This document shows positions 5,385 through 54,526 of a stretch of 64,000 nt of DNA, in pieces. The DNA comes from a virus: positions 1 to 64,000 of the IMG/VR virus record IMGVR_UViG_3300045988_137804. One strand, written 5' to 3'. A model generated the notes under the pieces. It was not told where the DNA came from. It saw only the letters and a list, made by a program, of their open reading frames with translations, and searched no databases. The position numbers and the translations under genes are program-made. The first letter of the stretch is position 1. Each line of letters starts with the position of its first letter.

Positions 5385-6965
5385 ATGGTAAATGAGATTA
5401 TTAATGGACTTGGTGTTTTAGTTCCTGTAGTGATTGTAGGAGCAGGTGGAATTGGAATTGTTGGTTCTGGATATGTAAAAGCATCGCCAGATAAAGCCTA
5501 TATCATTTCTGGTTTAAGAAAAGATCCAAAAGTTCTTATTGGAAAAGCTGGGCTTAAGATTCCATTCTTTGAAAAGAAAGACGAGCTAAATCTTCAGTTA
5601 ATTCCAATTGATGTAAAAACATCAAGTGCAGTTCCAACAGCAGATTACATCAACATTAACGTTGATGCAGCAGTAAACGTAAAGGTAAGTAGCGACACAG
5701 AAAGACTTAAACTTGCAGCAGAGAACTTTCTTAATAAACCAACTGACTACATTGGACAGGTTGCAAGAGAAGTTCTTGAGGGTAATATGCGTGAGATTGT
5801 TGGCAAAATGAACTTGGAAGAAATGGTTTCCGATCGTCAGAAGTTTGCAGAACTCGTAAAAGAAAATGCCGAACCAGATCTTGCTGCAATGGGACTCGAC
5901 ATTGTGAGCTTCAATGTACAGAATTTTGTTGATGAAAATGGAGTAATTGAAAATCTTGGTGTTGACAACATTGTTAAAATTCAGAAAAATGCAGCTATTT
6001 CAAGAGCTGATAGCGAAAAAGAAATTGCCAAGGCTCGTGCTATGGCTAAAAAAGAAGCGAATGATGCAGAGGTAACTTCTGAATTGGAAATTGCAAATGC
6101 TCAGGCTGAAGCACAGAAGAAGAAAGCAATTGTACAGGCTAACGCAGATAGAGAGTCAAGAGAAGCTCAAATTGCAGCAGACACACTTATTGCACAGAAA
6201 GAAAATGAACTTGAAATTAAAAAAGCAGAACTTCAGAAAGATGCTGATACGAAAAAGGCTTCAGCAGATGCAGCTTATAGTATTCAGGAAGAAAATGAAA
6301 GAAAATCTGTGGAGATTGCTACGGCAGATGCTAATCTTGCTAAACAGGAAAAAGCTGTGGAGATTAAAGAGAAAGAGATTGCACTCACAGAAAAAACTCT
6401 TGAAGCTACTGTAAAGAAACAGGCTGAAGCAGAAAAATATGCAAAACAGCAGGAAGCAGATGCAAGACTGTATGAAACACAGAGAAAATCAGAAGCAAAT
6501 CTTTTTGAGAGACAGAAAAATGCTGAAGCAGAGAAGTTTGAACGTGAGAAAGAAGCTGAAGCTATGAAAGCAACAGCAGAAGCTAACAAATATGCTATGG
6601 AACAGGAAGCAGAAGGTATTCGTAGTAAAGGACAGGCTGAAGCCGATGCAATCAAAGCAAAAGCTCTTGCAGAAGCAGAAGGTATTCAGAAGAAAGCAGA
6701 AGCAATGAAACAGATGGGTGAAGCAGCAGTTCTTGATATGTATTTCAAAGCTATGCCAGAAATCGCCAAGAATATCGCAGAACCTCTTGCCAAAGTTGAC
6801 AAAATTACAATGTATGGAGATGGAAACTCTTCAAAATTGATGAAAGATATCATGAACACTCTTAATCAGGTTACAGATGGTATGAAAGAGTCAACTGGAA
6901 TCGACTTAAATTCTATTCTTGCAGGTTTTGCAGGTGCTAAAATTGCTGAATCTACAGACAAATAA
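5385..6965 (+). CDS. Flotillin-like SPFH/band-7 protein (FloA/YqiK type)
   Basis: An N-terminal transmembrane segment, an SPFH domain, then a long Ala/Glu/Lys-rich coiled coil. Strong ribosome-binding site AAAGAGGAG. GC content is visibly higher than in the flanks. Confidence 0.8.
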   Translation: MVNEIINGLGVLVPVVIVGAGGIGIVGSGYVKASPDKAYIISGLRKDPKVLIGKAGLKIPFFEKKDELNLQLIPIDVKTSSAVPTADYININVDAAVNVKVSSDTERLKLAAENFLNKPTDYIGQVAREVLEGNMREIVGKMNLEEMVSDRQKFAELVKENAEPDLAAMGLDIVSFNVQNFVDENGVIENLGVDNIVKIQKNAAISRADSEKEIAKARAMAKKEANDAEVTSELEIANAQAEAQKKKAIVQANADRESREAQIAADTLIAQKENELEIKKAELQKDADTKKASADAAYSIQEENERKSVEIATADANLAKQEKAVEIKEKEIALTEKTLEATVKKQAEAEKYAKQQEADARLYETQRKSEANLFERQKNAEAEKFEREKEAEAMKATAEANKYAMEQEAEGIRSKGQAEADAIKAKALAEAEGIQKKAEAMKQMGEAAVLDMYFKAMPEIAKNIAEPLAKVDKITMYGDGNSSKLMKDIMNTLNQVTDGMKESTGIDLNSILAGFAGAKIAESTDK

Positions 6966-32385: not shown

Positions 32386-35300
32386 ATGGTAAGAGTTATT
32401 AAAAGAGATTGCTCTGAAGTTGATTTTGATAAGAATAAAATTTCAACGGCAATCTTAAAGGCTATGAAAAATGGTAGCGGAATTGTTAAACCCAAAATTG
32501 CGGAATCTATTGCAGATGAGATTGAAAAGGAATGTAAGGATCGAGAAGAGATTGATATTTCTGAAATTGAAGCAATGGTATTTGACAAGCTGATTACCAA
32601 AAAACAGAGACTTACTGCAAGAGCATATGAAGGTTATAGAAGTACAAGAGAATTCCAGAGAGAGAATGAGAATACTGTTGACGAGGAAATTCTTGGAATT
32701 GTAGAAGCAAACAACGAAGAATGGAAAGATGAAAATGCGAATAAAAATCCAGCATTAAACCCTACAATTCGTGATTATATTGCTGGATCTGTAAGTAAAG
32801 ACGCAACAAAAAGATTTTTATTATCTCCAGAAATTATTCAGAGTCATTTAGAAGGAATTATTCATTTCCATGATTCAGATTACTTTATTCAACATATGCA
32901 TAACTGCGGATTAGTAAATCTTGAAGATATGCTTCAGAATGGTACTGTTATTAGTGAAACAATGATTGAAAAGCCACATAGTTTTTCTACAGCATGTACC
33001 GTGACTACTCAGATCATTGCTCAAGTTGCATCTAGTCAGTATGGTGGACAGAGTATCTCACTTGCACATCTGGCACCGTTTGTGGATGTTTCCAGAGAGA
33101 AGATCCGTAAGGAAGTGATCAGCGAGCAGGAACTGGTCGGAATGGAATATCCGGAAGATGTGCTCAATGAGATCGTAGAGAGAAGACTGAAAAAAGAGAT
33201 TACAAAAGGTGTTCAAACAATTCAGTACCAGTTAATCACACTTATGACAACAAATGGGCAAGCACCGTTCATCACAATTTTTATGTATCTGAATGAAGCA
33301 AAGAATGAGAGAGAAAAGAAAGACCTAGCGATGTTAATTGAAGAAATGTTACTTCAGAGAAAACTTGGTGTGAAAAATGAAGATGGTGTTTATATTGCAC
33401 CAGCATTTCCAAAACTCATTTATGTTCTTGAGGATGACAATTGTAACGAATCAACAGAATATTGGTATTTAACAGAACTTGCTGCCGAATGCACGTCAAA
33501 AAGATTAGTTCCAGATTACATCTCTGAAAAAGTAATGAAAGAACTTAAAGGTGATGTGTATACATGCATGGGATGTGTTGATGGAAAAGAACTTGTTACA
33601 TATACATATAACAATAATCTTTACGTTGAATCATTTGAAAGAATGTGGAATAGACTTTCTGATAGATTTGAAATAAAACATCAGTATAATGACAACAACC
33701 CAAATCTATATATGGATTTGAGCGATGTAGAAATCTATGACACAGACAAAGGATTTGTTAATACAGAGAGAATAATCAGAAATATATCAACCTCTTGGCT
33801 TGATGTTAATTTTTCCAACGGAAGAAGATTACTTTGTACAGAAGATCACCCACTTACATTAAGAGATGGAAGAACAATCCATGCATCTGAATTAAAATTA
33901 AAGGATAGAATTCTCATTAATTCACATCAGTATAATGAAGAAAATATTGTATTCAATGAAGACAAGGCGTGGTTGTTAGGTTTTATGCTTTGTGATGGAT
34001 GTTATCAAGGCTCTTTATTTTCTTCAATTGCAGCAGAAAATGAAGATGAAATTGCAGATAAGTTTTCAGAAACAATGAAGAAATATTTTGATCTCGATAT
34101 TGAAAAAAAATTACAGCAAAGAGGTAAGAAAGGAACATATTACGATTTGATTGCACATAGTCAGAATGAAAAAATATCTGTGTATTGTAATTATTTCGCT
34201 AAAAAATTCGAAGGTCTGAATAAGATTGATAGACATGTTCCTAATGAAGTATTTTCATGGAATTATTCGTCAAAACTTGCTTTCCTGGCAGGAATGATTG
34301 ATGCAGATGGGTACATTAATAGTTCTCAGAATAAAGGATTTTCTATAGTTCAAATTGGTTCTACAAACAAAGAACTTGCATTACAACAAATGGCACTTGC
34401 ACAGTCTTTAGGTATGCCAGCAAAGCTGTACCATAACCATTACAGTAAACGTAACCCAGAATTGATTAGATACAGAGTTGAGTTTTATCCAACAGATGAA
34501 CTAATTAATTATATTGTATGTAAAAAGAAATATGATAATTATATTGATTCAAATGTATCTAGTTATAATCATGAATCTGAAGTTACTGAAATCAACAAAA
34601 TTAATAAAAAAATGTTTTCTTACGATGTAACAACAACAAGTGAGCATTTTGAAATTAGCGGAATCTATAGTCATAATTGTAGGTCTTTTTTAACTGTTGA
34701 TAGATTTTCTGATAAAGTTGGAAACATTTCTAACGCTAAAAACTTTAATGGAAAACATAAATATTACGGAAGATTTAATCAGGGTGTTGTTACAATTAAT
34801 CTTCCAGATATTGCATTTTCATCTGATGGCGACATGGATAAGTTTTGGGGAATTTTCGAAGAAAGAACAGAATTATGCCATAAGGCTTTAAAGGCTAGAC
34901 ATAACCGTTTGCTTAAAACTTCTTCTGATATTGCACCAATCCTGTGGCAGAACGGAGCATATGCAAGACTTAAAAAACATGAACCAATTGACAAACTTTT
35001 ATTTGATGGATATTCAACGATTTCTCTTGGATATGCAGGACTTTATGAGTGTGTGAAATATATGACAGGAAAATCCCATACAGATGGTGATGTAGGAGAA
35101 AAGTTTGGATTGGAAGTAATGCAAGCATTAAATGATAAATGTAATCAGTGGAAAGAAGCTGAAAACATTGATTATAGTTTGTATGGCAGCCCAATCGAAA
35201 GCACTACGTATAAATTTGCAAAGTGCTTAAAAAATAGATTCGGTGATGATATTTTTATTAAACTTGATGGATTTGATAGAAATTATATTACAAATAGTTA

Positions 35301-35730
35301 TCACGTTCCTGTGTTTGAAAGAATTACAGCATTTGACAAATTTAAAATTGAATCAAAATTCCAAAACCTTAGTCCAGGAGGCGCAATTTCGTATTGTGAA
35401 ATCCCATCAATTAACGTAAATATTCCAGCATTATTGGAAGTAATTAAATTTATTTATGACAATATTATGTACGCAGAAATCAATACAAAAGATTGTTATT
35501 GCGAAGTGTGTGGATACGATGGAGACATTCCACTTATTGACGATGATAACGGTAAACTTGTATGGGAATGCCCTAATTGTGGCAACACAGATAATACAAA
35601 AATGGACATCGCATTTAGAGTTTGTGGTTATGTTGGTACTGCAAAAAATGGTGGAAACCAAGGAAGATATGGAGATATCCACGATAGAGTTTACCACATC
35701 GATGACTTTGAATACGAGGAAAATGAATAA
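32386..35730 (+). CDS. nrdD: Anaerobic ribonucleoside-triphosphate reductase (class III) carrying an in-frame intein
   Basis: ATP-cone N-terminus. C-terminal Zn ribbon CEVCGYDG...CPNCGN and glycyl-radical motif RVCGYVG. Intein at 33574..34677. Confidence 0.85.
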   Translation: MVRVIKRDCSEVDFDKNKISTAILKAMKNGSGIVKPKIAESIADEIEKECKDREEIDISEIEAMVFDKLITKKQRLTARAYEGYRSTREFQRENENTVDEEILGIVEANNEEWKDENANKNPALNPTIRDYIAGSVSKDATKRFLLSPEIIQSHLEGIIHFHDSDYFIQHMHNCGLVNLEDMLQNGTVISETMIEKPHSFSTACTVTTQIIAQVASSQYGGQSISLAHLAPFVDVSREKIRKEVISEQELVGMEYPEDVLNEIVERRLKKEITKGVQTIQYQLITLMTTNGQAPFITIFMYLNEAKNEREKKDLAMLIEEMLLQRKLGVKNEDGVYIAPAFPKLIYVLEDDNCNESTEYWYLTELAAECTSKRLVPDYISEKVMKELKGDVYTCMGCVDGKELVTYTYNNNLYVESFERMWNRLSDRFEIKHQYNDNNPNLYMDLSDVEIYDTDKGFVNTERIIRNISTSWLDVNFSNGRRLLCTEDHPLTLRDGRTIHASELKLKDRILINSHQYNEENIVFNEDKAWLLGFMLCDGCYQGSLFSSIAAENEDEIADKFSETMKKYFDLDIEKKLQQRGKKGTYYDLIAHSQNEKISVYCNYFAKKFEGLNKIDRHVPNEVFSWNYSSKLAFLAGMIDADGYINSSQNKGFSIVQIGSTNKELALQQMALAQSLGMPAKLYHNHYSKRNPELIRYRVEFYPTDELINYIVCKKKYDNYIDSNVSSYNHESEVTEINKINKKMFSYDVTTTSEHFEISGIYSHNCRSFLTVDRFSDKVGNISNAKNFNGKHKYYGRFNQGVVTINLPDIAFSSDGDMDKFWGIFEERTELCHKALKARHNRLLKTSSDIAPILWQNGAYARLKKHEPIDKLLFDGYSTISLGYAGLYECVKYMTGKSHTDGDVGEKFGLEVMQALNDKCNQWKEAENIDYSLYGSPIESTTYKFAKCLKNRFGDDIFIKLDGFDRNYITNSYHVPVFERITAFDKFKIESKFQNLSPGGAISYCEIPSINVNIPALLEVIKFIYDNIMYAEINTKDCYCEVCGYDGDIPLIDDDNGKLVWECPNCGNTDNTKMDIAFRVCGYVGTAKNGGNQGRYGDIHDRVYHIDDFEYEENE
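33574..34677 (+). mobile_element. Intein of 368 aa with a LAGLIDADG homing-endonuclease domain, inserted in NrdD between ...YTCMG and CRSFL
   Basis: Starts with Cys (CVDGKEL) and ends ...SHN followed by Cys. LAGLIDADG motifs LLGFMLCDG and LAGMIDADG. Confidence 0.8.
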
Positions 35731-39518: not shown

Positions 39519-39863
39519 ATGCAGAAAAAGAATTACAAAGGTCGCTGCGAGAAATTAACAGTGCCAAAATCTAAGGATGTCTGCCATATCTATAATGACA
39601 TCCAAAAGTCTTATCTATTACAACTTCAGGACGATCCAAACATCAAAGAGATAAAATGTAATGTCCTTATGCTTGGATTGGAACTTGGAGAATTCACATC
39701 TGATTTTCAGTGTGTTACAGCAGACAACAATCTAATAGTGCGTGAATGTATCTCACGAGATGCTATCGCCAAACCAATGACAGCAAAACGATTAGATGCT
39801 TCAAGAGAGTATTGGTTTCGTCATGGCATAACAGATTGGGGGATTGTAACCGATGAAAAATAA
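39519..39863 (+). CDS. tnsA: TnsA-like endonuclease (short form) of a Tn7-like element
   Basis: Position and overlap with tnsB. Restriction-endonuclease-like D...E.x motif region SDFQCVTADNNLIVRECIS. AGGAG ribosome-binding site. Assignment is tentative. Confidence 0.45.
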   Translation: MQKKNYKGRCEKLTVPKSKDVCHIYNDIQKSYLLQLQDDPNIKEIKCNVLMLGLELGEFTSDFQCVTADNNLIVRECISRDAIAKPMTAKRLDASREYWFRHGITDWGIVTDEK

Positions 39864-41661
39864 GAGTCTATTTTATAATCCAAAAACCAAAGAAATATTT
39901 CGTGTGTTAGACAGTAAAGGTTCAAAAGTTCTTATCATTAATTGCACAAAGAAACAGATGCCTTATTGGACAGAATTCGATTCAATTTCTTCCTGTCGTT
40001 TAATCACAGAAGATGAATTACAGGACATGACTGGCACACATTTTCAAGAACTAACTGTACCATCAAAAGAATACAGATATGTTCAAGAAAGGTTTTCACT
40101 GATTTCAAATATCATTCCTATCATCGGAAATAAAAGCAAGCGTACTCAGATGATACGAATCATATCTGAAACAAATAATTGCAGTAAACAAACAATCAAA
40201 AACATCTTGTGCCAGTATCTCATCTATCAAAATATTTCTGCATTAGCACCGCAAAAGAGCAATGAAAAAGAACTAACAACAGATGAGAAAAACATGCGTT
40301 GGGCATTAAATAAGTTCTTCTATACAAAGAATAAGAATTCATTATCAACCGCTTACGTCATGATGCTTAAAGAAAAATATACAGATGAATACAACAACTT
40401 ATTACCACACCCAACCATTCATCAGTTCCGTTATTTCTATCGCAAAACAAAAAAGATGGAAACGTATTATATCTCAAGAGATGGCATAAAAGATTACCAA
40501 AGAAATCACAGACCATTGCTAGGAGAAGGAATTAGAACAGTTGCAAATAGCATTGGAACAGCTATGTTGGATTATACAATCTGTGATATTTATCTCGTAA
40601 ACGATAAACAAGAATTAATTGGTCGTCCATTAATGACAGCTTGCATTGATGTCTACAGCGGATTGTGTTGTGGTTACTCATTAACATGGGAAGGTGGAAT
40701 GTACAGTTTGCGTTCTTTGATGTTAAATGTGGTCACTAATAAGAAAGAACATTGTAGAAAGTTTGGAATAAATATCGAAGAATCCGACTGGAATTGTCAT
40801 CAATTACCTGCAACATTAATCACAGATAAAGGTTCAGAATATGCGTCAGAAAACTTTGAACAACTTACAGATTTAGGAGTGTCTATTATAAATCTACCAG
40901 CCTATAGACCAGAGTTAAAAGGATCAGTTGAAAAGTTTTTTGATATGATTCAATCACTTTATAAGCCACAGTTACTAGGAAAAGGTGTCATAGAATCTGA
41001 TTTCCAGGAACGTGGCTCACATGATTATAGAAGAGATGCTTGTCTAACATTAGAACAATTTGAAAAAATAATTCTTCGTTGCATCATCTATTATAATACA
41101 CAGAGAATTATCAAAAATTCACCACTGATTGAACAAAATATTCCGCCACATTCTTGTGACATATGGAACTATTATTTGACCTATAATGATGACTTTTTGA
41201 TAAGAATATCGCCACAGAATCTACTTTTATGTTTGCTACCAAGAACGAAAGGAGTGTTTAAAAGAAATGGTTTAAACGTCAATAGTCTCCGCTATAAGCA
41301 TAAAACATACACCGAAATGTATCTTGTAGGAGGAGATGTAACAGTAGCCTACAATCCAGAAGATGTTTCTTACATTTGGCTCATTGAAGAAAATGGAACG
41401 TATGTAAAATTTGAATTAATCAATTCTCAGTTCTATGGAAAGGATTTATCATTTGTAGAAAAATATATGGAGTCATCTAAGAAGCTAATTGCAGAAAATA
41501 CCGATGATAATTTACGAGCAAAAGTTACGCTTTCAAAAGATATAGATTTTGTAATTTCTGAAAGTGTACGTTCTAATGTAAGCACAAAAAATATCCGCAA
41601 GAATCGTCAGAAAGAACAGGAACTTACTCATAGAGATTTCGTAAAGGAGTATGAATTATGA
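39853..41661 (+). mobile_element. tnsB: TnsB-like DDE (Mu/rve-type) transposase
   Basis: DDE core DYTICDIY...TACIDVYSG...ITDKGSEYAS. Size and gene order fit. Confidence 0.8.
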
Positions 41662-42917
41662 TTAATATGAATAAAGTAATCAAAGAACTTCCTGATATGC
41701 TGTCCGGAAATGAACTTCAGAAAGCAATGTCTATTATTCCAAAATACGACAAACAGATTCAGGAAGATGGAAGTATGACCGAAAGACTTTTGAAATTATC
41801 TGACCTTTATAGCATTTATATTCCATCACAAATGTCTACTGAAATTTATAGCAAACTATATCTTGGAATCATTCGTTCTATGCAGAAAAAAGGAAACAAG
41901 TTAACTGTACAACAATTCAATTCAACTTATAGAACGATGCAGAATATTAAGAATAAAACTGGCAATCAGCAATATGATGGAATCATAGGTGGATCAGATT
42001 CATTTACAATTATTGGTGCAAGTGGGATAGGAAAATCATCAGCTATTTCTCGTGCATTGAATCTGATTGAAGCAAATCATGTAATAGAAATTGAACAGCC
42101 TTACACTAAAATACTTCCATGCTTAACAGTGCAATGTCCATTCGATTCTTCTGTAAAAGGATTATTACTTGAAATTCTTCGCAAAGTTGATGAGCAGTTA
42201 GGAACAGATTATGCACAAACAAAAAGGTTCACGACTGATATGCTTATAGGTGCTGTTAGTCAGGTGTGTTTAAATCATATTGGCTTGCTTGTTGTAGACG
42301 AAATACAGAACGTAGTTAATTCAAAGAACGGCAAGAACTTAATCGGATCATTGACGCAGCTAATCAACAATTCAGGCATTAGCATCTGCATGGTTGGAAC
42401 ACCAGATAGTGAAATATTCTTTGAACAGGCTATGCAATTAGCTCGTAGAAGTGTCGGATTAAAATACACAGCTTTGCCATACGATGAACATTTTTGCGAA
42501 GTATGTGAATGCTTATTTTCTTACCAATATGTAAAAAATATCACATATATAAATAGCACGACTATAGAATGGTTGTATCAACACAGTGCAGGAGTTATCT
42601 CTATTGTTGTATCATTAATTCATGATGCACAAGAGATTGCAATCTTAAATGGGAGAGAAGTATTAGATATTAAATCGTTAGACGAAGCATACAACAATAG
42701 ACTTTCTATGTTGCACGATTATATTAGACCTACTATGAGAAAGAAATCTATCGGCAATAATAAAATAAAGAAACAAAATATCATTACAACTTTGTCGATA
42801 AAAAATAGCGCAGATATTCAAACAGATTTAATACAAAGTCTTGCGAAAGAATGTAAGAAAGATGGAACAGATATTGTAGAAATACTGAGTCAACATATTA
42901 CAATTGAGGTGATTTAA
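41658..42917 (+). CDS. tnsC: TnsC-like AAA+ ATPase
   Basis: Walker A IIGASGIGKSS and Walker B LLVVDEIQN. Confidence 0.75.
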   Translation: MINMNKVIKELPDMLSGNELQKAMSIIPKYDKQIQEDGSMTERLLKLSDLYSIYIPSQMSTEIYSKLYLGIIRSMQKKGNKLTVQQFNSTYRTMQNIKNKTGNQQYDGIIGGSDSFTIIGASGIGKSSAISRALNLIEANHVIEIEQPYTKILPCLTVQCPFDSSVKGLLLEILRKVDEQLGTDYAQTKRFTTDMLIGAVSQVCLNHIGLLVVDEIQNVVNSKNGKNLIGSLTQLINNSGISICMVGTPDSEIFFEQAMQLARRSVGLKYTALPYDEHFCEVCECLFSYQYVKNITYINSTTIEWLYQHSAGVISIVVSLIHDAQEIAILNGREVLDIKSLDEAYNNRLSMLHDYIRPTMRKKSIGNNKIKKQNIITTLSIKNSADIQTDLIQSLAKECKKDGTDIVEILSQHITIEVI

Positions 42918-44318
42918 ATGATTGGATTTATGCCTAAATTATATCCAGATGAATTAGTGTATAGTTGGATTGCTAGGTATCATGTAAGAACTGGACATTA
43001 TAGTTATCAGCAAACAGCAAAACATCTACTAGATAAGAAAGCAAATATTGTCTCGAAAAAGTTTTTAAACGAATACTCAAATGAATTTTTTAACATCATC
43101 AAAAAGAATATTCCAATAAAAGAGTTAGTAATAAATCATAGTATGCTGTCAGCTTATATTAAATTTTTGCCAAAAGATAAGCGCAATAATCTAATAGAAT
43201 CCTATGAAAACAATTTAAGATATAAAGAGTCATCAATTGGATTTAAGACAAGAAGTAATGGTATTAGTATGCGATATTGTCCTATATGTGTAAAGGAAGA
43301 TCGAGAAAAATATGGAGAAACTTACTGGCACAGAGAACATCAATTTGTTGGAATTAATGTATGCACAAAGCATAAATGTTATCTTATAGATTCCAAAATG
43401 TCTGTAAAAAGTATTGATAAGTCTGAGTTTTATACCGCAGAATATGTCATAGAACAACATGATGATGTTAAGATTTCCAATAATGAGTATGAGATAAAGT
43501 TTGCCAAGTATTTTACAGAAGTCATAAATACAGAGTCAAATAATGACTCAAATATTGTGGAATATCTCAATACTATATTATTGAACTCAAAGTATAGAGC
43601 AAATGGATGTATGCTAAAAGATTTTAATAAATTGTACGATGATTATTCTGAATTATGCGAAAAGATTAATGTAAATATAATTTCTTCACAACCATCGTTA
43701 AGAGAGATATTAAAAAATAAACGCAGAACATTGGATATTTGTATCCTTGGAATGCTATTGAATATTTCGCCTTACGATCTCGTGAATAGAGTATTGCCAA
43801 ATACAAACAAAGAGGATATCAGAGAGCAAGTCATATTTTTAAGAGATGTAAAAAAGATGAGTTATAATCGTATTGCAAAAGAATTAAACGCAAGTAGAAG
43901 AGCAGTTGGTACAATATATCATAGTAAAAAAACTGAAAATGATTTAGATGTTCTTAAACTTCTTAAAGATGAACTGCCAAAATTCTATAATGGAGATTTA
44001 ACTAATGGAAGACCGCAAAAAATAACAGTATACACAGTTGAAAAACAATTTGATATTCCACAAAAAGTATTAATAAATAATAAATCCTATTATAACGAAA
44101 TAATCAAGTATGAAGAGTCTTATCCTGAATATTGGGCGAGAGAATTAGTATGGTCTTATAATAAACTAAAGGAAGATAAAGCATATATAAGTCAAAATAA
44201 AATAACCAAACAAATAAATATTCGTAAGGAGCAACCTGTAAAAGCTATACCATACATCTCTAAATATACAGACAAAGAAACTGCTGAAGCTATTAAATCA
44301 TTATTGCAAAAATCGTAA
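42918..44318 (+). CDS. tniQ: TniQ/TnsD-family target-selection protein
   Basis: N-terminal TniQ motif LYPDELVYSWIARYH and zinc ribbon CPICVKE...CTKHKC. Confidence 0.75.
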   Translation: MIGFMPKLYPDELVYSWIARYHVRTGHYSYQQTAKHLLDKKANIVSKKFLNEYSNEFFNIIKKNIPIKELVINHSMLSAYIKFLPKDKRNNLIESYENNLRYKESSIGFKTRSNGISMRYCPICVKEDREKYGETYWHREHQFVGINVCTKHKCYLIDSKMSVKSIDKSEFYTAEYVIEQHDDVKISNNEYEIKFAKYFTEVINTESNNDSNIVEYLNTILLNSKYRANGCMLKDFNKLYDDYSELCEKINVNIISSQPSLREILKNKRRTLDICILGMLLNISPYDLVNRVLPNTNKEDIREQVIFLRDVKKMSYNRIAKELNASRRAVGTIYHSKKTENDLDVLKLLKDELPKFYNGDLTNGRPQKITVYTVEKQFDIPQKVLINNKSYYNEIIKYEESYPEYWARELVWSYNKLKEDKAYISQNKITKQINIRKEQPVKAIPYISKYTDKETAEAIKSLLQKS

Positions 44319-44378: not shown

Positions 44379-45524
44379 TTATTTTAAAGCACCGCTTGAA
44401 TTAAAGCTATATTCTTTTCCACCTATTTTAATTATTTCATTACAAGCCATTGATCCATCATCTTTAAGATAATATTTTGTGCCTTTATCTGTAACCCAAT
44501 GATTTCTCATCATTGCTCCGACTGGGATACAATCCTTATCTTTATTATACCAATACCATTTATTATTTTTTTTTAACCAACCAGTTACCATTGAACATCC
44601 TGGAAATCCAGAGACTTCTCCACTTGATACAAAATAATAATCATTTGTCCCATCATTATATTCGCCTAAAACTGCTGAACCAGTTTGATGATTTTTACCT
44701 CCACTTGTTCTCAATAGATACCAAAAACCATCAATTTTTCTCCAACCCGTAACCATCGCACCGATTGCATAATATGGCGTATTAGATTCACTTAAATAAT
44801 ACCAGTCGCCATTATCACAAAGCCAACCAGTTTTCATACTGCAATCATCATTAAAATAATACCAATGTCCATTTATTGATTCCCATTTATTATTTATAGC
44901 ATAACCATTTTTGTCAAAGTAGTACCAAACGTTATCTAGACATTTCCACTGTTCCTTTGGGTATGATTCGTCATCATTTCTATACCACCAGCCAATATTG
45001 TCTTTTTTCCAACCAACAGATATTTTATTAGTAATATCTTTCTTGAACTGATTCCAAATAGAAGAGTCACAACCGTTTGCACCCCAACCTGTCCAACCTG
45101 GACAAGACTTAGAGCATACATCCCAATGACGAACAACATGAGCTGCATCGATGTTATATTTCTTCATAAGTGTTTTAGTAAGTTCAACTGTATTTCTATA
45201 TGTTCCATCAGAAATCTTTCCGTCTGTAGAACACATTTCGATGCTAATTGAATTACTATTCGTACATTTTCCAAATAAGTTATTTGAACCGTAATTTCTT
45301 CCAACAGCCCAAGCCGTGTCACTATCGGAAACTACCTGTACTACGTTCTCTGTATCAACGAAATAATGAGCAGATGCACCACGGTTAGTACTTTTAAAGT
45401 AGTTGCCGTTGTTCACAGATTTGTCCCACCAATTTCCTGTGTAGTGAATTACAATATACTTTCTTCCGTTATTACCTTTTGTGTAATTAACTTTAGTAAG
45501 GTTTTGAATAAGTTTGTAAGCCAT
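44379..45524 (-). CDS. Endolysin: N-acetylmuramoyl-L-alanine amidase (Amidase_2/PGRP) with C-terminal choline-binding-type cell-wall-binding repeats
   Basis: YIVIHYTGN...SAHYFVD. Repeated GW..DNGDWYY / TGW.K.dg.WYY modules. Confidence 0.8.
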   Translation of the reverse strand: MAYKLIQNLTKVNYTKGNNGRKYIVIHYTGNWWDKSVNNGNYFKSTNRGASAHYFVDTENVVQVVSDSDTAWAVGRNYGSNNLFGKCTNSNSISIEMCSTDGKISDGTYRNTVELTKTLMKKYNIDAAHVVRHWDVCSKSCPGWTGWGANGCDSSIWNQFKKDITNKISVGWKKDNIGWWYRNDDESYPKEQWKCLDNVWYYFDKNGYAINNKWESINGHWYYFNDDCSMKTGWLCDNGDWYYLSESNTPYYAIGAMVTGWRKIDGFWYLLRTSGGKNHQTGSAVLGEYNDGTNDYYFVSSGEVSGFPGCSMVTGWLKKNNKWYWYNKDKDCIPVGAMMRNHWVTDKGTKYYLKDDGSMACNEIIKIGGKEYSFNSSGALK

Positions 45525-46899: not shown

Positions 46900-48618
46900 T
46901 TATCCTATTGTTACAGTAGTACCAGAGCTATTTGACTCTTCCTTATACGGAATCGCACTTACTGATACGTTATCTTTCATGACCTTACCGCTTGTACTAA
47001 GTGACTGTGTGGTAGCTGACGGAGTTACACTATATGAGCCTGAATAAGTCTCTGGAAGTTTAGCGATAATTGCTTTAAGAATTGAAGTCACATCTGAGCC
47101 ATAAGATGAGAGAGAAGATAAGTCTCCCAGTTTTGTATTGATTTCTGATTCTGTGTAATAACGATCATCGTGCGTATGACTTGAAGCTGCTTTTCCATTA
47201 AGAGCGGTAGTAATTGTACTCTGTGTCATAGTACCATCTGTTGCAGTACCCGTACCTGTATAAAGTTTTGTAAGACCTGCTGTTGATGTTGTTCCTGTAC
47301 TGTAAGTAGTATTTGTAGGAACTACCCATGTACCATCTCCACGTAAAAATGATGCTTGTTTTCCAGCCGCAGGAGCCGGAACTAAACCTGCTTTTCCAGC
47401 AGCACTTGCTGTAGCGGCAGTCATATTGCTATAAGTTGTATTATTATCCGGTGGAACAGTCCAAGTTCCATCCTCTCTAAGATATTTTGTAGTACCTGCT
47501 GTTGTAGATGGAGCAGGTACAAGACCAGCCTTTGCTCCAGAACCAGACTTAACAAAATTTGAATATGTTGTGTTGTTATCTGCTCCCCAAACAGCAGTAC
47601 CATCCGCTGACCATCTAAGAATTTGCCCAGAAGACCCTCCGGATGGAATATGTTTATTTCCAGATGTTGTTGGGTGAGTATATACTGTATCTGTGAATTT
47701 TGCCCCGGATGGAACATCTGCATTAACTGTATGATTATTTACTTTTGATGCATTTGTTGCAGTTGAAGCATTTCCACTTAAAGCACCTTTAAAGGTTGTT
47801 GCTCTGATTGTTCCAGAAGACGGCTGAACAGACAATCCAGCACTTGAGAAAACTTGATCCGTAACAGTTGTTGGCGAGAATCCTTCTGTAGCACTATTTG
47901 AAGCACCCCAAACCAATGATCTCCAGTTTGTATAATCTGAATCTTTTACAGCTGCCTGTGTTACCTTTGTGTCCGTATTCGTATCACTTCCAGGAATACC
48001 TAATCCTGTAATATCTGCCTTTGTAACAGCAGTAGCAGCACTAACATGTCCTGTTGCATCAACTGTAACTTTGTAAAGTCCAGAAGATTTTGCTGTGTAA
48101 CTTGGATGGGTATAAACTGTATTATTATCAGTTAATTCGATAGTTGTGTTCCCAGATTGGTTCATAGTAAAAGTCCCTTTACTAGTGCCATTTTGTTTGA
48201 CAGTCACTGTACCATTACCAACTGACGGTATTGTAGCAGAACTATAAGCAAGAGAACCAAGTCCAAGCCATGATTTCAATGCGTCTTTACTGACATCCTT
48301 GATTTTTGCAATATTTGAACCACCGTCTCCGCCTGTATATCCTGCAATGAATTTAATGTTATCTCCTGTAATTCCACTTCCGCTATAACCAATCTTAATA
48401 TTTTTTGATGTATTTCCATAATCGACTACAGTAGTAGCCGAATCCGCACTTGTTGCTTTAGTCGCAGTATCTGCATTTCCCTGTAATTTTCCAATAAATG
48501 TTGGAGCTGTAACTGAGTCGCTTACATATAATTTTGACAAAAGCCTCGAAACTCCCGTTACGATTAGATTGCTTAACTGAGCCAAGTTAACTCCTCCTTT
48601 CGTATATTTAAAAATCAA
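46900..48618 (-). CDS. Tail fibre protein with Phage_fiber_2-type repeats
   Basis: YTHPSYTAKSSGLYKVTVDATGHVS module and C-terminal SHTHDDRYYTESEIN. Confidence 0.65.
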   Translation of the reverse strand: MIFKYTKGGVNLAQLSNLIVTGVSRLLSKLYVSDSVTAPTFIGKLQGNADTATKATSADSATTVVDYGNTSKNIKIGYSGSGITGDNIKFIAGYTGGDGGSNIAKIKDVSKDALKSWLGLGSLAYSSATIPSVGNGTVTVKQNGTSKGTFTMNQSGNTTIELTDNNTVYTHPSYTAKSSGLYKVTVDATGHVSAATAVTKADITGLGIPGSDTNTDTKVTQAAVKDSDYTNWRSLVWGASNSATEGFSPTTVTDQVFSSAGLSVQPSSGTIRATTFKGALSGNASTATNASKVNNHTVNADVPSGAKFTDTVYTHPTTSGNKHIPSGGSSGQILRWSADGTAVWGADNNTTYSNFVKSGSGAKAGLVPAPSTTAGTTKYLREDGTWTVPPDNNTTYSNMTAATASAAGKAGLVPAPAAGKQASFLRGDGTWVVPTNTTYSTGTTSTAGLTKLYTGTGTATDGTMTQSTITTALNGKAASSHTHDDRYYTESEINTKLGDLSSLSSYGSDVTSILKAIIAKLPETYSGSYSVTPSATTQSLSTSGKVMKDNVSVSAIPYKEESNSSGTTVTIG

Positions 48619-49295
48619 TATTCGATAAAGTCATCGAACTCTATTTTGTTTTCGTATATCTTGTTTGAATTTGGGATAGAATAAATCCCGTGAATTTGAT
48701 CATTATAAGACGGTCTATAAATTTCTGTTCCTTCATGGATTCTAAGACCTGTAAATAAAATGTATCCTTGTGTAAACGTATTTTCCAAATTTGGGTTTGG
48801 GTAAAACATAATATAAATCTTTCCATCATCTGCATTTGATCTAAATTTTGCCCAAACCAATATCACTTTTCCTTTTGTAGTGTCTACAATACTCCACGAG
48901 TTACCGTTTGTATTATATTTTTCTGTATACGAACAACCATGTTCTAAATGTAATCGAAAATCCGCATCACAATCCTCAGAAACATAAGCGTACATGCTTA
49001 CTGTGAAATCTCCATTTTTTATTCTTTCTTTTTGCCAATCGAGAATATAAGAGTAAACCATGAATCGTTTTGTATTATTCCAATATTTTCGTTTCTCCTC
49101 TGATACGGGATTAATTTTTTTACAAGTATCAAATCCATAAGGAAGAAAAATATCCGTCTTATAGTTAGATTCACAGGTACAATTACTATTTGCTATATTT
49201 TGTTTTCCTAAATATAAATTTTGCGGGGGGGGGGTAACAGAATAGTTTACATCAATTATCCCATTTTCATTAAGTTGCGTCATTCTATCCTCCAA
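48615..49295 (-). CDS. Tail-module hypothetical protein with a C10 homopolymer at codons about 21-24 (TPPP)
   Basis: G10 on the + strand at 49225..49234. Confidence 0.5.
   Translation of the reverse strand: MEDRMTQLNENGIIDVNYSVTPPPQNLYLGKQNIANSNCTCESNYKTDIFLPYGFDTCKKINPVSEEKRKYWNNTKRFMVYSYILDWQKERIKNGDFTVSMYAYVSEDCDADFRLHLEHGCSYTEKYNTNGNSWSIVDTTKGKVILVWAKFRSNADDGKIYIMFYPNPNLENTFTQGYILFTGLRIHEGTEIYRPSYNDQIHGIYSIPNSNKIYENKIEFDDFIEY
49225..49234. repeat. G10/C10 homopolymeric tract inside a coding sequence
   Basis: Counted directly. It encodes ...VTPPPQ. Confidence 0.8.
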
Positions 49296-49313: not shown

Positions 49314-49709
49314 CTAAAATTCAATGAAATCTGCCGATGAAATTCCACTTTCATTAAAAGTACATTTTGATGTTATTTCTGTGTCTATGCGGTAATATAA
49401 GTCGTAATAACCATCTATAACCACTTCTCCAAGTGTAGATGGAATACCACCATTAAATTTATTCCAACAACCGATAGCTCCCCACCAGTTACTGCTATAT
49501 GTATTGTTCATACAGAGATAAGTATTACCTTTCTTTAGATAAACTCCACCGTAACTACTTGAAGTCCAATATTCATCACCTGTATAGACCTCAACATCAT
49601 CGTGACCCACATCTGCGAAAGCAGCAGTCATCGGATTTACATTTTGAATAAACCTATATTTAAAATCTGGATTACTTTCTGTTATTTTTGAATTGTCATA
49701 AGTTCCCAT
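49314..49709 (-). CDS. hypothetical tail-module protein
   Basis: ORF only. Confidence 0.45.
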   Translation of the reverse strand: MGTYDNSKITESNPDFKYRFIQNVNPMTAAFADVGHDDVEVYTGDEYWTSSSYGGVYLKKGNTYLCMNNTYSSNWWGAIGCWNKFNGGIPSTLGEVVIDGYYDLYYRIDTEITSKCTFNESGISSADFIEF

Positions 49710-49960
49710 TTGCCTGACGTGTTGTAATTACATAATGAAACATTAAACCATGCATTTTCGTTCTTGTATACATGTGTTGCAAATGAGTCAGATTCTGAGA
49801 ATAAGTTAAAAGAACCGTCAGATAAGACGGGAGTATGATGAAAGACTCTTACCCATACTGATCCATCTGATTCAGTATAAAAGTTTGAGTCATACATATT
49901 AATAATAGGAGAGGTAGCAAATGCAGTTGCAAGGATGTTTCCATTTTTACAAATATTCAT
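49682..49960 (-). CDS. hypothetical tail-module protein
   Basis: ORF only. Confidence 0.4.
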   Translation of the reverse strand: MNICKNGNILATAFATSPIINMYDSNFYTESDGSVWVRVFHHTPVLSDGSFNLFSESDSFATHVYKNENAWFNVSLCNYNTSGKWELMTIQK

Positions 49961-50770: not shown

Positions 50771-52575
50771 TGCTCAATAAATTCTCCTTGTGTCATTAGA
50801 GTACCTGTATTAGTAATAGATACAGGTGTCTTATATAAGTTCATAACATCTTCAGCAGAGAGTGCTGTGGCGTAGATACGAAAGTCAGAAAGATAACCGT
50901 TAGTCCAATTACCTTTTGGGATTCCATTATCAGAATTTTCCGATCCTCCAATTGTCCCTTTTGTGCCAACTCCTTGTAATGTCCCAACTTCATCTTTTGT
51001 CGAAACTAAATTTCCATCTACGTATAATTTTTTGGCTGTGTTACTTCTTGTTACACAAATATGATGCCAACAATTTGTGGTCACAAGATAATCAAATTCT
51101 GTATGTACTTCATCATCAAGTCTTATTACACCTCCAAGAAAGAATACGGCTACTCCAACACCAACGGCTGTTCTTGCAGTATATATAGTGTGCACAGTAT
51201 TTTTTGTAAAATAAGCCCAACAAGCAATAGAAAAATCTGTAGCTGTAGAATTGATTGGATTTTGGACTCCGATATAATTTGAACTACCATTAAATTTATA
51301 ACAACAATTATATCTAGGTGAATCATTATAGATGGTAGGAGCAGAAGAGGAAGTAATCCATCCGTGATGACCAAAGCCAGAAGTATCATAGATTGTGTTA
51401 TCATACATTTCTGGAGTATCTTTTAGAGATGTCATATAAGGAGTGGGAGATGAACCAAGTTCCACTTTTGCATTCTTTACATAAAGATCAGCATTATATC
51501 CGCCTCCGACACAAAAGTAATCAGAATCTTTGCCAGTATACAAATCTCTTAATGTCACGGTTACAGAATATCTTGTCCATTCATCACTTTTAACATCATC
51601 CATTAAATCTCCAAACTCGCGTCTGTTCCAGAAATCAATAGAAGAAGTTGTTGTACTCCAATACTGAATATAAGGACTTCCGCTATCTATAGTTCCTTTT
51701 ACATCAACTGAAAAGGTTACAACATCTCCTGTTTTTAATCCGGAATTCTTACGTTCAAAATTTATACAAATCCCATTTGAATTAAAAATGCCAGTATTTC
51801 CAGTTTTAAAATGCCAACCTTCCGATGTTACTTCGTTGATGATGATATTATTTATTACACCATCACCCCAGTTTCTCCCATTCCAATCAATTAACCCTGA
51901 AGAATCTAATAAGTTTCTTCCAATGATATTTCCATCAATCATACTCATCGGATAATGGCACATTAACCCTTGAGATAAAAGACGAACTTCTTTAGGAGAT
52001 ATGGCATTATTGTAAATACGATAATCATTAAACATATGATATTCTGAATTGTAAATCATCTGTGTGTCATAAGCAAATGTAGAAGAGTTACTAACTTTTC
52101 CGCCTTCAGACCATTTTAGTTGTCCATTAATATAGATATTAATAGTAGGATTTTTATATACAACTGCAACATGTGTCCATTGATAGGATGGAAGTACACC
52201 TTTTATAAAATTTCCACAAAATATTGTATTTTCAGCATCATTCATCCAACTCCAATGAAAGTCATTACATGTAGGATATTGAAATAATGAAAACTTTCTA
52301 CTATTGTTTGCTGTCATATTATCGTTTCCAAATATCCTTGTGCGATTTGTAGTACTTCCTTCTTCCGCATTTACATATATCCAGAAAGCAATAGTAAGTT
52401 CATCATTATTTAGAACCTTTTCTGTACCTTCAGCCGGAATCAAAACTCCGCCTTTATTTAAACACTTTCCAAGTTTTCCGTCTTTGTAAGTTGCTCCTGT
52501 AACTTGTAAATCTACGTCCAGTAATCCCTGATTATTAGTATGTCCGTTCAGTGGCAGGTGTATCATCAAACTCAT
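50767..52575 (-). CDS. Receptor-binding or tail-fibre protein with LamG/concanavalin-like lectin domains (paralog A)
   Basis: DYRIYNNAISPKEV and DFRIYATALSAEDVMNLY, which are LamG-type signatures. The C-terminus TPVSITNTGTLMTQGEF is shared with the upstream paralog. GGAGG ribosome-binding site. Confidence 0.6.
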   Translation of the reverse strand: MSLMIHLPLNGHTNNQGLLDVDLQVTGATYKDGKLGKCLNKGGVLIPAEGTEKVLNNDELTIAFWIYVNAEEGSTTNRTRIFGNDNMTANNSRKFSLFQYPTCNDFHWSWMNDAENTIFCGNFIKGVLPSYQWTHVAVVYKNPTINIYINGQLKWSEGGKVSNSSTFAYDTQMIYNSEYHMFNDYRIYNNAISPKEVRLLSQGLMCHYPMSMIDGNIIGRNLLDSSGLIDWNGRNWGDGVINNIIINEVTSEGWHFKTGNTGIFNSNGICINFERKNSGLKTGDVVTFSVDVKGTIDSGSPYIQYWSTTTSSIDFWNRREFGDLMDDVKSDEWTRYSVTVTLRDLYTGKDSDYFCVGGGYNADLYVKNAKVELGSSPTPYMTSLKDTPEMYDNTIYDTSGFGHHGWITSSSAPTIYNDSPRYNCCYKFNGSSNYIGVQNPINSTATDFSIACWAYFTKNTVHTIYTARTAVGVGVAVFFLGGVIRLDDEVHTEFDYLVTTNCWHHICVTRSNTAKKLYVDGNLVSTKDEVGTLQGVGTKGTIGGSENSDNGIPKGNWTNGYLSDFRIYATALSAEDVMNLYKTPVSITNTGTLMTQGEFIEQ

Positions 52576-52622
52576 ACAACTACCTCCAGAATATTCAGAC
52601 AGTTTCTATCTATTTTTTTTTT

Positions 52623-52640
52623 TTTTTTTGAATAATTTCT
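52623..52640. repeat. T18 (A18 on the coding strand) homopolymeric tract in the 84-bp spacer between the two LamG receptor-binding protein genes, 48-65 nt upstream of the paralog-A start codon
   Basis: Counted directly. Confidence 0.8.
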
Positions 52641-52659
52641 TCGCATCTCGTTCATTTTC

Positions 52660-54503
52660 CTACATCTCCTTAAATTCACCCTGAGTCATTAATGTTCCAG
52701 TATTCGTAAGTGACACTGGCGTATTGTATAATTCTTTTATATCTTGATCCGATAGAGCAGTAGCATACATTCTGAAATCTGATATAGAATAATCAGAAGT
52801 GGAAGAGCTGTCCTCACTATAACAATTACCAATACGATGTAATGCATGTGCTGATGCATACTCGGTATCTATATTGCTGTGTGTAACAGTTTTTCTCAAC
52901 ACGCCATTTAAATAATATTTGGCTGTATGTGTTTCTAAATCCCATGTGATTGTGAACATATTCCATACATTTAAATTAACATCAAACGTACATGTATTAC
53001 TGCAACAATCCATTGTAATAGCTTGTGCCCCTGTAGAACCAATTATAATAAAATCATATTTGTTTCCTGTCCAGTTATAACCATTTGCAAAAAATAGATA
53101 AGTTCTCCATGTATTGCTAGTTGAATGTCTATTAATCCAGAGATTTGCTGTTCCCTGAGACATATTTTCAAATGAAAAATTCGGTGTAATTATTCCTGTT
53201 TGCGCACCATTTAATAGTTTGCATGAACCATCATATCTTGGAGCATCGTTGTTATATGAAATATAATCTTTATTATACATTGTTCCATGATTCCCATAAC
53301 CACTTGTATCATAAACAATTCCATCATTCCAAGCACCATTACTTATAGGAGTATCAACATCACATTCTGATACTTGCACATCTTTAAGGTCAAAATCAAA
53401 TGAAAAAGTTGCGTCTTTAGTAGCCATAGCACTTGTATAAAATTCTAAGATTGGGTTAGTTTTATAAGTTGTTCCAGATCTATCTGATGTTTCTTCAAGT
53501 TGGATAATTAAATGATGTTCTCGCCATTTACCATCAGCCAAACTTGACGAGCAGACTGTTGAATTTTTAGGTCTAGCCCAGTCATTATCCATTCTACTTG
53601 CTCTTAATTCAAAAGATACATTAGAAGTACATGTATTGCATCTAGTCTTACAACTATAATCATATTTCTTTCCTGCCGTGAAATTAAATACTGGAAAGCT
53701 AATTGACTTCCAACTATTTGTTCCAGTACCTGTATATGTATATTTATAATTATATCCACGTTCATCTGTTAGCTTTGTACATGTTATATCATTTACACCA
53801 CCATTGGCTCTTCCTTCAAAGAAATCTCCGGAATATTTATTAATAGAAGCAGTAGGATACGGATCGTTTAAAGGATAGTGACAGATCATACCTTTTGCTA
53901 ATTCTTTAATTTCGCGTGGTGATAGGGCGTTGTCGTAGATGCGGATGTCTGACATATAAGATTGATACATCATATCGCCTTTAATTCTAGAGCCAATTGT
54001 AATTGATTTGTTTGAACCCCAAATATCAGACAAGTTATTAACCTTTGTTTTTTCTACTATTAAAGAACCATTAACATAAAATTTTCTACTTGTTCCATCA
54101 ATTATAAATGCAATATGATGCCATTTGTCATTTGACAAATTAAAAAGACATGTATTTCCACCAATTAAACCTTTTGAGTCTGAAAACCAATAGTAACCAG
54201 TCGTCGTATTTACTTCTAACCGATTATCATATTCGCCTATTGCAAATATATCTGACCATGCTCTAGGTGTCTTTGGTTTTACCCATAATGCAATAGTCAA
54301 TTCTTCTGAGTCATATTCCCACGGGACTCTTAAACAATAATCTCCCATAGATATACTCTTACCAAATTTATCATCTATATACGAAGGACTTGATGATGCT
54401 GTAATATTCATCGTACCAAGTCCATGATTTTCTAAGTTGTTCTGTGTGTTTAACCACACTTGTAAAGCCAATAAAGACCACTCCCTTTCTTTGAAAAAAG
54501 GAG
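52660..54503 (-). CDS. Receptor-binding or tail-fibre protein with LamG-like domains (paralog B)
   Basis: DIRIYDNALSPREIKEL and DFRMYATALSDQDIKELY. The start was reassigned to the ATG at 54503 (AAGGAG ribosome-binding site), because the maximal ORF start at 54609 overlaps the upstream gene. Confidence 0.6.
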
Positions 54504-54526
54504 CAGAATTCATCCGCTCCTTAATA

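Follow-up and report, generated by a model that had tools for sequence, protein, structure and literature searches.

Among the closest described counterparts of the locus analysed here are the poly-G tracts of Campylobacter phages, which are hypermutable too (Sorensen et al. 2021, Cell Rep 35:109214, as cited in PMC12823448). In both cases, a phage homopolymer lies in the tail or receptor-binding module, and its length varies between progeny or strains. The poly-G tracts reportedly reside within coding sequences and switch them ON or OFF by frameshift; the present tract is A/T, 11-18 nt long and intergenic, and only shifts the frame of a 27-aa mini-ORF. Simple-sequence repeat (SSR) contingency loci that mutate by polymerase slippage have also been described for T2, T4 and other phages (Gomez, Barrick and Waters, bioRxiv 10.1101/2025.10.21.683753). 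According to that work, they are mostly runs of at least 6 nt within open reading frames (ORFs), few are intergenic, and they are under-represented in tail fibres. Like some of these loci, the present repeat is intergenic; unlike them, it is much longer, belongs to the tail module and is accompanied by other variable tracts in the same block.

A poly(A) tract is also found in the vlp promoters of Mycoplasma hyorhinis, a precedent cited in PMC10502178. Here too, insertions and deletions affect an A homopolymer ahead of a surface-protein gene. The vlp tract belongs to a defined promoter, with a separate transcript for every vlp gene, whereas the tract described below sits in a packed operon with no evident −35/−10 pair or transcript of its own. 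The Bordetella fim promoters, with their C tract, are a further example of phase variation by spacing. Phage tail proteins are also diversified by other systems, namely G-segment inversion in Mu and diversity-generating retroelements (PMC12823448). Both are presumed to lead to the same result, a single phage lineage whose receptor-binding equipment is heterogeneous, but by entirely different mechanisms (site-specific inversion and reverse-transcriptase mutagenesis, respectively).

The locus is located in a 64,000-nt stretch of viral DNA (positions 1 to 64,000 of IMG/VR record IMGVR_UViG_3300045988_137804), referred to below as the window. Two tandem genes for LamG-domain tail proteins, paralog B and downstream of it paralog A, are separated by a spacer that harbours the tract. 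By sequence-level criteria, the tract belongs to the known class of phage contingency loci, because it is a perfect repeat with length polymorphism on identical backgrounds; its intergenic position and its length are unusual for the class. If tract length alters the output of the second LamG protein, an uncultured gut phage would hedge its host recognition without inversion or retroelement, and this bet-hedging would operate via an intergenic repeat, not via in-gene frameshift. Together with the C9-11 and A5-13 tracts of the same block, the locus would then form a multi-locus contingency system in a phage of ~160 kb, extending the cited cases (Campylobacter phages; coliphages, i.e. T-even phages and T7; Vibrio phages ICP1/ICP2).

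The tract and its genomic setting

Read from the window sequence, the tract comprises 17 A on the coding (−) strand, corresponding to T17 on the + strand (Table 1). The first-pass annotation had correctly recognised a long homopolymer, but had given it as T18 at 52623..52640, which is one base too many and 10-11 nt too high; A18 is a length seen in sibling assemblies, not in the window. The distances to the neighbouring genes shift likewise. The tract starts 30 nt (not 20 nt) past the stop codon of paralog B (TAG at 52662..52660) and ends 37 nt short of the ATG of paralog A (52575..52573), spanning −38 to −54 instead of 48-65 nt upstream. Its placement in a non-coding spacer ahead of the second LamG paralog, as given by the first-pass annotation, is supported.

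Table 1. Coordinates of the features at the LamG intercistronic locus (positions refer to the window).
Feature	Position	Strand	Remarks
LamG paralog B, 617 aa	52660..54513	−	ATG at 54513, TAG 52660..52662; 617 aa according to gene callers
AAGGAG, possible Shine-Dalgarno site	52666..52671	−	within the final codons of paralog B; 10 nt ahead of the mini-ORF ATG
Predicted mini-ORF, 27 aa, MNEMRRNYSKKKKKIDRNCLNILEVVV*	52572..52655	−	contains the tract; ATG 5 nt after the paralog B stop
Intercistronic spacer B-A, 84 nt	52576..52659	−	only long gap of the tail operon without a terminator
Invariant GAAATTATTC block	52630..52639	−	adjoins the tract on its 5' side; ATTC anchor common to the G-tract clade
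Hypervariable homopolymer A17	52613..52629	−	lengths 11, 15, 16, 17 and 18 in 14 related copies, uninterrupted
Small hairpin UAGAUAG-AAA-CUGUCUG	52596..52612	−	directly 3' of the tract; −4.9 kcal/mol, no better than shuffles
GGAGG Shine-Dalgarno site of paralog A	52583..52587	−	7 nt before the ATG; invariant in all copies
LamG paralog A, 602 aa	50767..52575	−	downstream of the tract; two Laminin_G_3 stretches

The A17 tract far exceeds chance. Base composition predicts ~1e-3 runs of at least 17 A, and ~1e-4 of T, in 64 kb, and the second-longest A/T run in the window measures 9. All six matches to A12 in the window fall inside the tract, compared with 0.72 expected from dinucleotide shuffles. 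Perfect homopolymers of at least ~8 nt are capable of slippage, and the A17 tract, pure in 14/14 copies, is well above this length.

Both LamG proteins contain two Laminin_G_3 domains (PF13385, 101 and 117 bits; cut-off 27.6), and can be aligned from end to end at 26% identity (E = 5e-29), their C-terminal tails being nearly identical. The mechanical ORF of paralog B reaches further than the called gene, to a GTG at 54609; the protein is 100% identical to P0129, annotated in NCBI nr as a ConA-like lectin of 'MAG TPA Caudoviricetes sp.'. Ahead of the pair, in a block of tail-like genes, is the gene of a 1026-aa tail-fibre protein that matches Phage_fiber_rpt and Mtd_N. Domain scores above the Pfam threshold and the position in the tail module identify both as LamG/concanavalin-A-like lectin tail proteins. 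An AF2 model of paralog A, of low to moderate confidence (pLDDT 62.8), resembles laminin LG and neurexin LNS domains and the receptor-binding domains of clostridial neurotoxins; these matches are generic for LamG or neurotoxin-binding domains. In proteins from close relatives (P0002, P0003 and P0018), the N- and C-terminal parts of paralog A are ~80% identical, with residues ~212-364 replaced. Replacement of a central domain between conserved ends is the usual signature of a specificity domain, and the exchange suggests a modular swap of such a domain. Given the LamG/lectin folds and the tail-module position, it is reasonable to infer that the two paralogs bind receptors; they may also set host range, and the host-range switch of the first-pass annotation is a putative one on the same grounds.

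Gaps between genes of the tail operon do not exceed 35 nt, and two of the junctions are ATGA overlaps. The exceptions are the 84-nt spacer and a 100-nt gap ahead of the endolysin gene; the latter holds a clear terminator hairpin.

The window has a GC content of 33% and encodes DnaE, RecD, an intein-bearing NrdD and NAD ligase; a near-identical contig (L001) is 160.8 kb long. The source is a gut phage of ~160 kb that uses Shine-Dalgarno sites and has a polycistronic late tail operon. Shine-Dalgarno use hints at a Firmicutes host; a genome scan for the host returned distant matches only, among them a Coprococcus genome and a Lachnospiraceae MAG. The 4-kb locus had no match among INPHARED phages (megablast, blastn). 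Neither a single-protein scan of IMG/VR nor the exact flank patterns of the A and G spacers retrieved anything there, and the close clade is therefore taken as absent from IMG/VR.

Three consecutive + strand genes at 39853..44318 encode Mu-transposase C-terminal, TniB and TniQ domains and make up a Tn7-like transposition module, which sits within the phage just before the strand switch to the lysis/tail block. The anaerobic ribonucleotide reductase NrdD (32386..35730, +) is split by an intein with a LAGLIDADG homing endonuclease.

Length variation among close copies

Searches for exactly matching proteins retrieved the locus from a large number of independent metagenome assemblies. In the 14 copies, the tract is A11 (two copies), A15 (four), A16 (one), A17 (four) or A18 (three), always without interruption. 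The window (A17) and L001 (A18) are 100% identical in the 600 nt on either side. Four contigs from four samples (L007-L010) have 0 mismatches over 1500 nt per side and carry A16, A15, A17 and A15, respectively; in the same contigs, a C tract 3.4 kb downstream reads C9, C11, C10 and C11. Repeat number hence differs on an identical background, as is typical of contingency loci, with the data being short-read assemblies. At the assembly level, the earlier proposal of a hypermutable locus is thus supported, both by the A11-A18 range in 14 independent copies and by the 15/16/17 series among four contigs otherwise identical over 3 kb.

The tract persists where its surroundings diverge. Sublineages whose flanking 600 nt are only 73-80% identical keep a pure tract, namely A11 twice and A15 twice, in independent samples. 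The blocks next to it, GAAATTATTC and TAGATAGAAACTGTCTGAATATTC, are invariant across copies except for one G-to-A change in L014/L015, and a 12-nt patch 5' of GAAATTATTC differs strongly among sublineages. Several of the contigs are Illumina assemblies at 3-4x coverage, so that some of the ±1 length differences may be technical; as a whole, the pattern of lengths in these sequences argues for real heritable differences and a high mutation rate. We infer slipped-strand mispairing during replication as the probable cause of the length drift.

The sister clade and more distant relatives

A comparison of homologous spacers in related phages, which the first-pass annotation had proposed, was run, and variable tracts were found in two clades: A runs in the close clade and G9-G11 in a sister clade. 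In the latter (L016, L168 and L170), the LamG genes are again in tandem. Paralog B of this clade shares 63% identity with its 612-aa counterpart in the A clade (L007-type, P0123) and 46% with the 617-aa protein of the window. Its spacers consist of the stop codon, 29 nt, a tract of G9, G9 or G11, 33 nt and the ATG (e.g. G9 at L016 2959..2967). The G-tract lengths differ on nearly identical flanks, and the ATTC anchor before the tract is common to both clades. Downstream of the G run lies a CUCCUC, complementary to the Shine-Dalgarno site, with which the run could also pair. That one inter-paralog site holds tracts of two different bases is hard to explain by neutral drift alone.

In about 70 more distant relatives, at 24-54% identity and with phage genomes of 150-177 kb, the fibre gene is followed by one LamG gene only, and there is no spacer tract. 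They are essentially devoid of long homopolymers, and many have a hairpin and T-run in the gap. In L030-L055 and L107-L120, the conserved hairpin GGAGAGTAG...CTACTCTCC, followed by a T-run, is located ~60 nt upstream of LamG; this fibre-LamG hairpin may be an attenuator setting the expression of LamG relative to the fibre. A derivation of the post-tract leader from the ancestral fibre-LamG gap of these single-gene relatives was considered, but the similarity was not significant (best 15/500 shuffles). The tail block of L012, a tract-less relative with one LamG gene, carries an inserted IS110-family transposase (5474..6595).

Tract density is 3.06 per 10 kb in the loci of the clade, compared with 0.16 per 10 kb in the loci of 54 relatives of similar GC content. 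Another clade with tandem LamG genes, L126 and L127 (IMGVR_UViG_3300043101_000190 and 3300043080_000590), lacks a spacer tract. Its LamG genes are both broken at coding poly-G runs, G7 vs G8 at the first site and G8 at the second (~3127 and ~5972), so that every LamG gene is split into two ORFs in both contigs. Because of the G-spacer clade, the coding runs of L126/L127 and the density contrast, homopolymers are regarded, at the sequence level, as a recurrent, lineage-specific trait of these tail genes.

Signals in the spacer

The first-pass annotation proposed that length changes would alter either promoter spacing or the structure of the untranslated region. Neither idea is supported by the scans. 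No σ70-like −35/−10 pair was found in the spacer by a promoter scan for σ70-like motifs, with counts not above those of shuffles; a phage-specific promoter type may differ from these motifs. The best reading with the tract as promoter spacer, TTATTC-A17-TAGATA, agrees at 5/12 positions, and its −10 element is without the invariant final T. A tract between −35 and −10 or next to an activator site, as in promoters of the vlp, fim or porA type, is therefore not present for σ70. The flanking blocks, viewed as a possible phage promoter motif, gave chance-level matches only elsewhere in the window. A terminator scan of the spacer detected none after paralog B. Together with operon gaps of at most 35 nt, this makes read-through transcription the default.

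With regard to RNA structure, the fold of the spacer is not significant (z = 0.16); z-scores for the spacer, the post-tract leader and the + strand are 0.16, −0.16, 0.01 and −1.28 overall. RNA folding gave no significant pairing of GAAATTATTC with GAATATTC, and an Rfam search of the spacer at a permissive E-value returned no family. The G-to-A change in L014/L015 converts one U.G pair of the post-tract hairpin to U-A, which is weak support for this hairpin. The GGAGG of paralog A is downstream of the tract, and its spacing to the ATG is hence independent of tract length.

An intrinsic terminator is likewise not formed, since the sense-strand run is A, not U, and the + strand stem is weak. Nor is the A tract a coding-frame switch of the Campylobacter phage poly-G type, a description that fits the neighbouring C tract. 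Followed upstream from the ATG, the frame of paralog A meets a TAG at 33 nt, with no intervening start codon. An N-terminal extension of paralog A that includes the tract, or a B-A fusion frame, was rejected because of in-frame stops and because the mini-ORF is out of frame with paralog A.

A mini-ORF and proposed frame-dependent coupling

The predicted mini-ORF enters the tract as TCA and continues in AAA codons. At A17, its TGA (52574..52572) overlaps the ATG of paralog A, and the resulting ATGA resembles that of translationally coupled genes. The frames, worked out for each length, fall into three groups. The mini-ORF bridges the spacer at A11, A14, A17 and A20 only; at A12, A15 and A18 it ends two codons past the tract, and at A13, A16 and A19 it ends at once, in either case ~30 nt earlier. 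The AAGGAG upstream of it is conserved in all copies and in the G-tract clade, although it also encodes a conserved Lys-Glu. Every spacer haplotype of both clades has the mini-ORF together with this AAGGAG. The G clade has a comparable layout: with G9, the frame crosses the spacer and ends at a TAA located 7-9 nt into paralog A, and with G11 it stops four codons past the tract. Judged from sequence, the predicted mini-ORF and its AAGGAG would thus provide a stop/start overlap suited to coupling, at lengths of 11, 14, 17 and 20 alone.

The most likely cis effect of the tract, which we put forward tentatively, is frame-dependent translational coupling of paralog A to paralog B. In this view, the tract is a genuine hypermutable SSR in the intercistronic leader of the second tandem LamG gene, and its length probably drifts through slipped-strand mispairing in replication. 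Ribosomes that finish paralog B would start the mini-ORF and read through the tract. At lengths of 11, 14, 17 or 20, termination at the TGA would deliver them onto the ATG of paralog A; at other lengths, they would stop ~30 nt upstream of the paralog A start. Tract length modulo 3 would then set how tightly A is coupled to B, and the ratio of the two tail proteins would vary among progeny. To our knowledge, no system has been described where the reading frame of a coupling mini-ORF is determined by a hypermutable repeat.

Coupling is consistent with the length polymorphism between invariant flanks, with the purity of the tract despite diverged flanks, and with a variable G tract at the same geometry in the sister clade. 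Tracts are clade-specific (3.06 vs 0.16 per 10 kb), other homopolymers of the block toggle ORFs (C9/10/11), L126/L127 carry coding G7/G8 runs within both LamG genes, and ATGA overlaps are used elsewhere in this operon. The scans yielded no competing promoter, terminator, RNA family or significant structure. On the other hand, the chance of a bridging mini-ORF is ~0.11-0.12 per clade according to shuffling, a value that is suggestive without being compelling, and the clades do not count as independent. Bridging lengths are not enriched (6/14 in the A clade, 2/3 in the G clade), the mini-ORF peptide is not conserved between clades, and ±1 differences in assemblies of 3-4x coverage could be technical. 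The strong GGAGG of paralog A may by itself give equal translation in all states. RNA polymerase slippage on so long a run would add leakiness to a frame switch. Ribosomes, moreover, slide on poly(A) or iterated AAA codons (PMC4363877; PMC11194080), which would blur the frame set by the DNA.

A more elaborate version appears doubtful: the spacer would be a translational phase switch with three states, retained by both sister clades (A11-18, G9-11), and would together with the coding tracts of the tail block constitute a multi-locus 'phasome'. If such a switch exists, one lineage would keep yielding progeny with different ratios of two receptor-binding proteins.

Alternative explanations

Nearly as likely as coupling is a functionless, slippery spacer, in which slippage has expanded a run within an AT-rich, unconstrained gap that mutates fast and has no effect on expression; the gap was possibly created when the LamG gene was duplicated. 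The scans of the spacer detected no regulatory element, all three mini-ORF frames occur with no preferred length, and the Shine-Dalgarno spacing of paralog A is untouched by the tract. Long homopolymers, once formed, tend to persist via slippage, which also counts in favour of this explanation. It accounts less readily for a tract that stays pure where its flanks differ by 20-27%, for sequence invariant on both of its sides, and for G9-G11 at the same site in a sister-clade phage of 34% GC. Moreover, there is no other such intergenic tract in the window, and almost none in ~380 kb of relatives' loci.

Phase-variable spacing of a promoter or activator site is an unlikely alternative. One-base changes would here alter the spacing or helical phase between sites for RNA polymerase, a late activator or a σ factor. 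Lengths of 15-18 are near the canonical 17-bp spacer, invariant blocks flank the tract on both sides (GAAATTATTC on one, TAGATAGAAACTG then GAATATTC on the other), and the spacer is the only long, terminator-free gap of the operon. The vlp promoters, as mentioned in PMC10502178, offer a precedent. A contig with a different upstream region also bears on this point. In L002 (1..232; ERZ28619677 scaffold_1955), DNA of ~60% GC replaces paralog B upstream of the tract; it contains an ORF end as well as a hairpin that strongly resembles a terminator (GGAGGCCGGAAAACCGGCCTCC plus a T-run), shares with the phage spacer just the 10-mer GAAAATGAAC, and, over its 230 GC-rich nt, has no match in the window, IMG/VR or INPHARED. 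Were the join genuine, this hairpin would have to be followed by a promoter. A mis-join at the homopolymer is the likelier origin of the junction, with the shared GAAAATGAAC keeping a real recombinant possible. Promoter spacing is further weakened by the lack of a σ70-like site, with the key last T of −10 missing from the best reading, by flanking motifs that do not recur in the window, and by the expected read-through. In the G clade, comparable blocks are only 14 nt apart.

It is improbable that, the tract itself being real, its length variation is technical, arising from PCR or sequencing stutter and consensus errors in short-read assemblies. Apart from the low coverage of several contigs, three independent assemblies (L003, L004 and L006) end at the tract or no more than 12 nt from it, and one contig, L002, is joined to unrelated GC-rich DNA; breaks and mis-joins of this kind are typical of assembler trouble at homopolymers. 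The breaks are also compatible with high-frequency switching within populations, though not diagnostic of it. Yet the same length recurs in independent samples of one sublineage (A11 in L011/L013; A15 in L014/L015; A15 in L008/L010), lengths range over 7 nt, and in the same contigs the C tract, though shorter, varies by as much as 2 nt. Since the tract breaks or mis-joins short-read assemblies, tail-module annotation and strain comparison in this phage group need long reads.

Two further ideas are very improbable. One is an antisense (+ strand) intrinsic terminator, for which the inverted repeat CAGACAG-TTT-CTATCTA directly before T17 might speak; against it, two C.A mismatches disrupt the + strand stem, the region is no more stably folded than its shuffles, the scan does not call a terminator, and the G-clade counterpart on the + strand is C9-C11, unfit as a U-run. 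The other is a tract that fills a recombination junction, as the departure of L002 from phage sequence near the tract might imply; against it, the post-tract sequence is not significantly similar to the ancestral fibre-LamG gap.

Other variable homopolymers in the tail block

The first-pass annotation had described the A tract as another hypermutable locus beside a C10 tract in the same tail block, and the C9/C10/C11 series in the same contigs agrees with this. The C10 run of the coding strand (G10 on +) at 49225..49234 is located inside a 226-aa ORF (48615..49295, −), and is C9, C10 or C11 in otherwise identical contigs. C10 gives the full ORF (222-226 aa), whereas C9 and C11 give truncated calls (148 or 170 aa, sometimes with an additional 32-aa fragment). 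From the ORF calls, the C tract looks like a genuine coding-frame phase switch.

A third variable tract, also of A, is found at 49685..49689 on the coding strand (ACAATTC-A5-TAACAG, 49679..49696), where ORFs 49682..49960 and 49314..49709 overlap. It is A5 in the window and in L001-L003, A9 in L007-L011 and A13 in L013; in the latter, the two small ORFs are fused into one 218-aa gene. The context 'ATTC-An-TA' is common to this tract and the main tract.

The sole other A/T run of at least 9 in the window is a T9 on the + strand (A9 on the coding strand) at 44566..44574, within the endolysin ORF (44379..45524, −). All three long homopolymers of the window are in the − strand late block, with 0 in the 44 kb of + strand genes.
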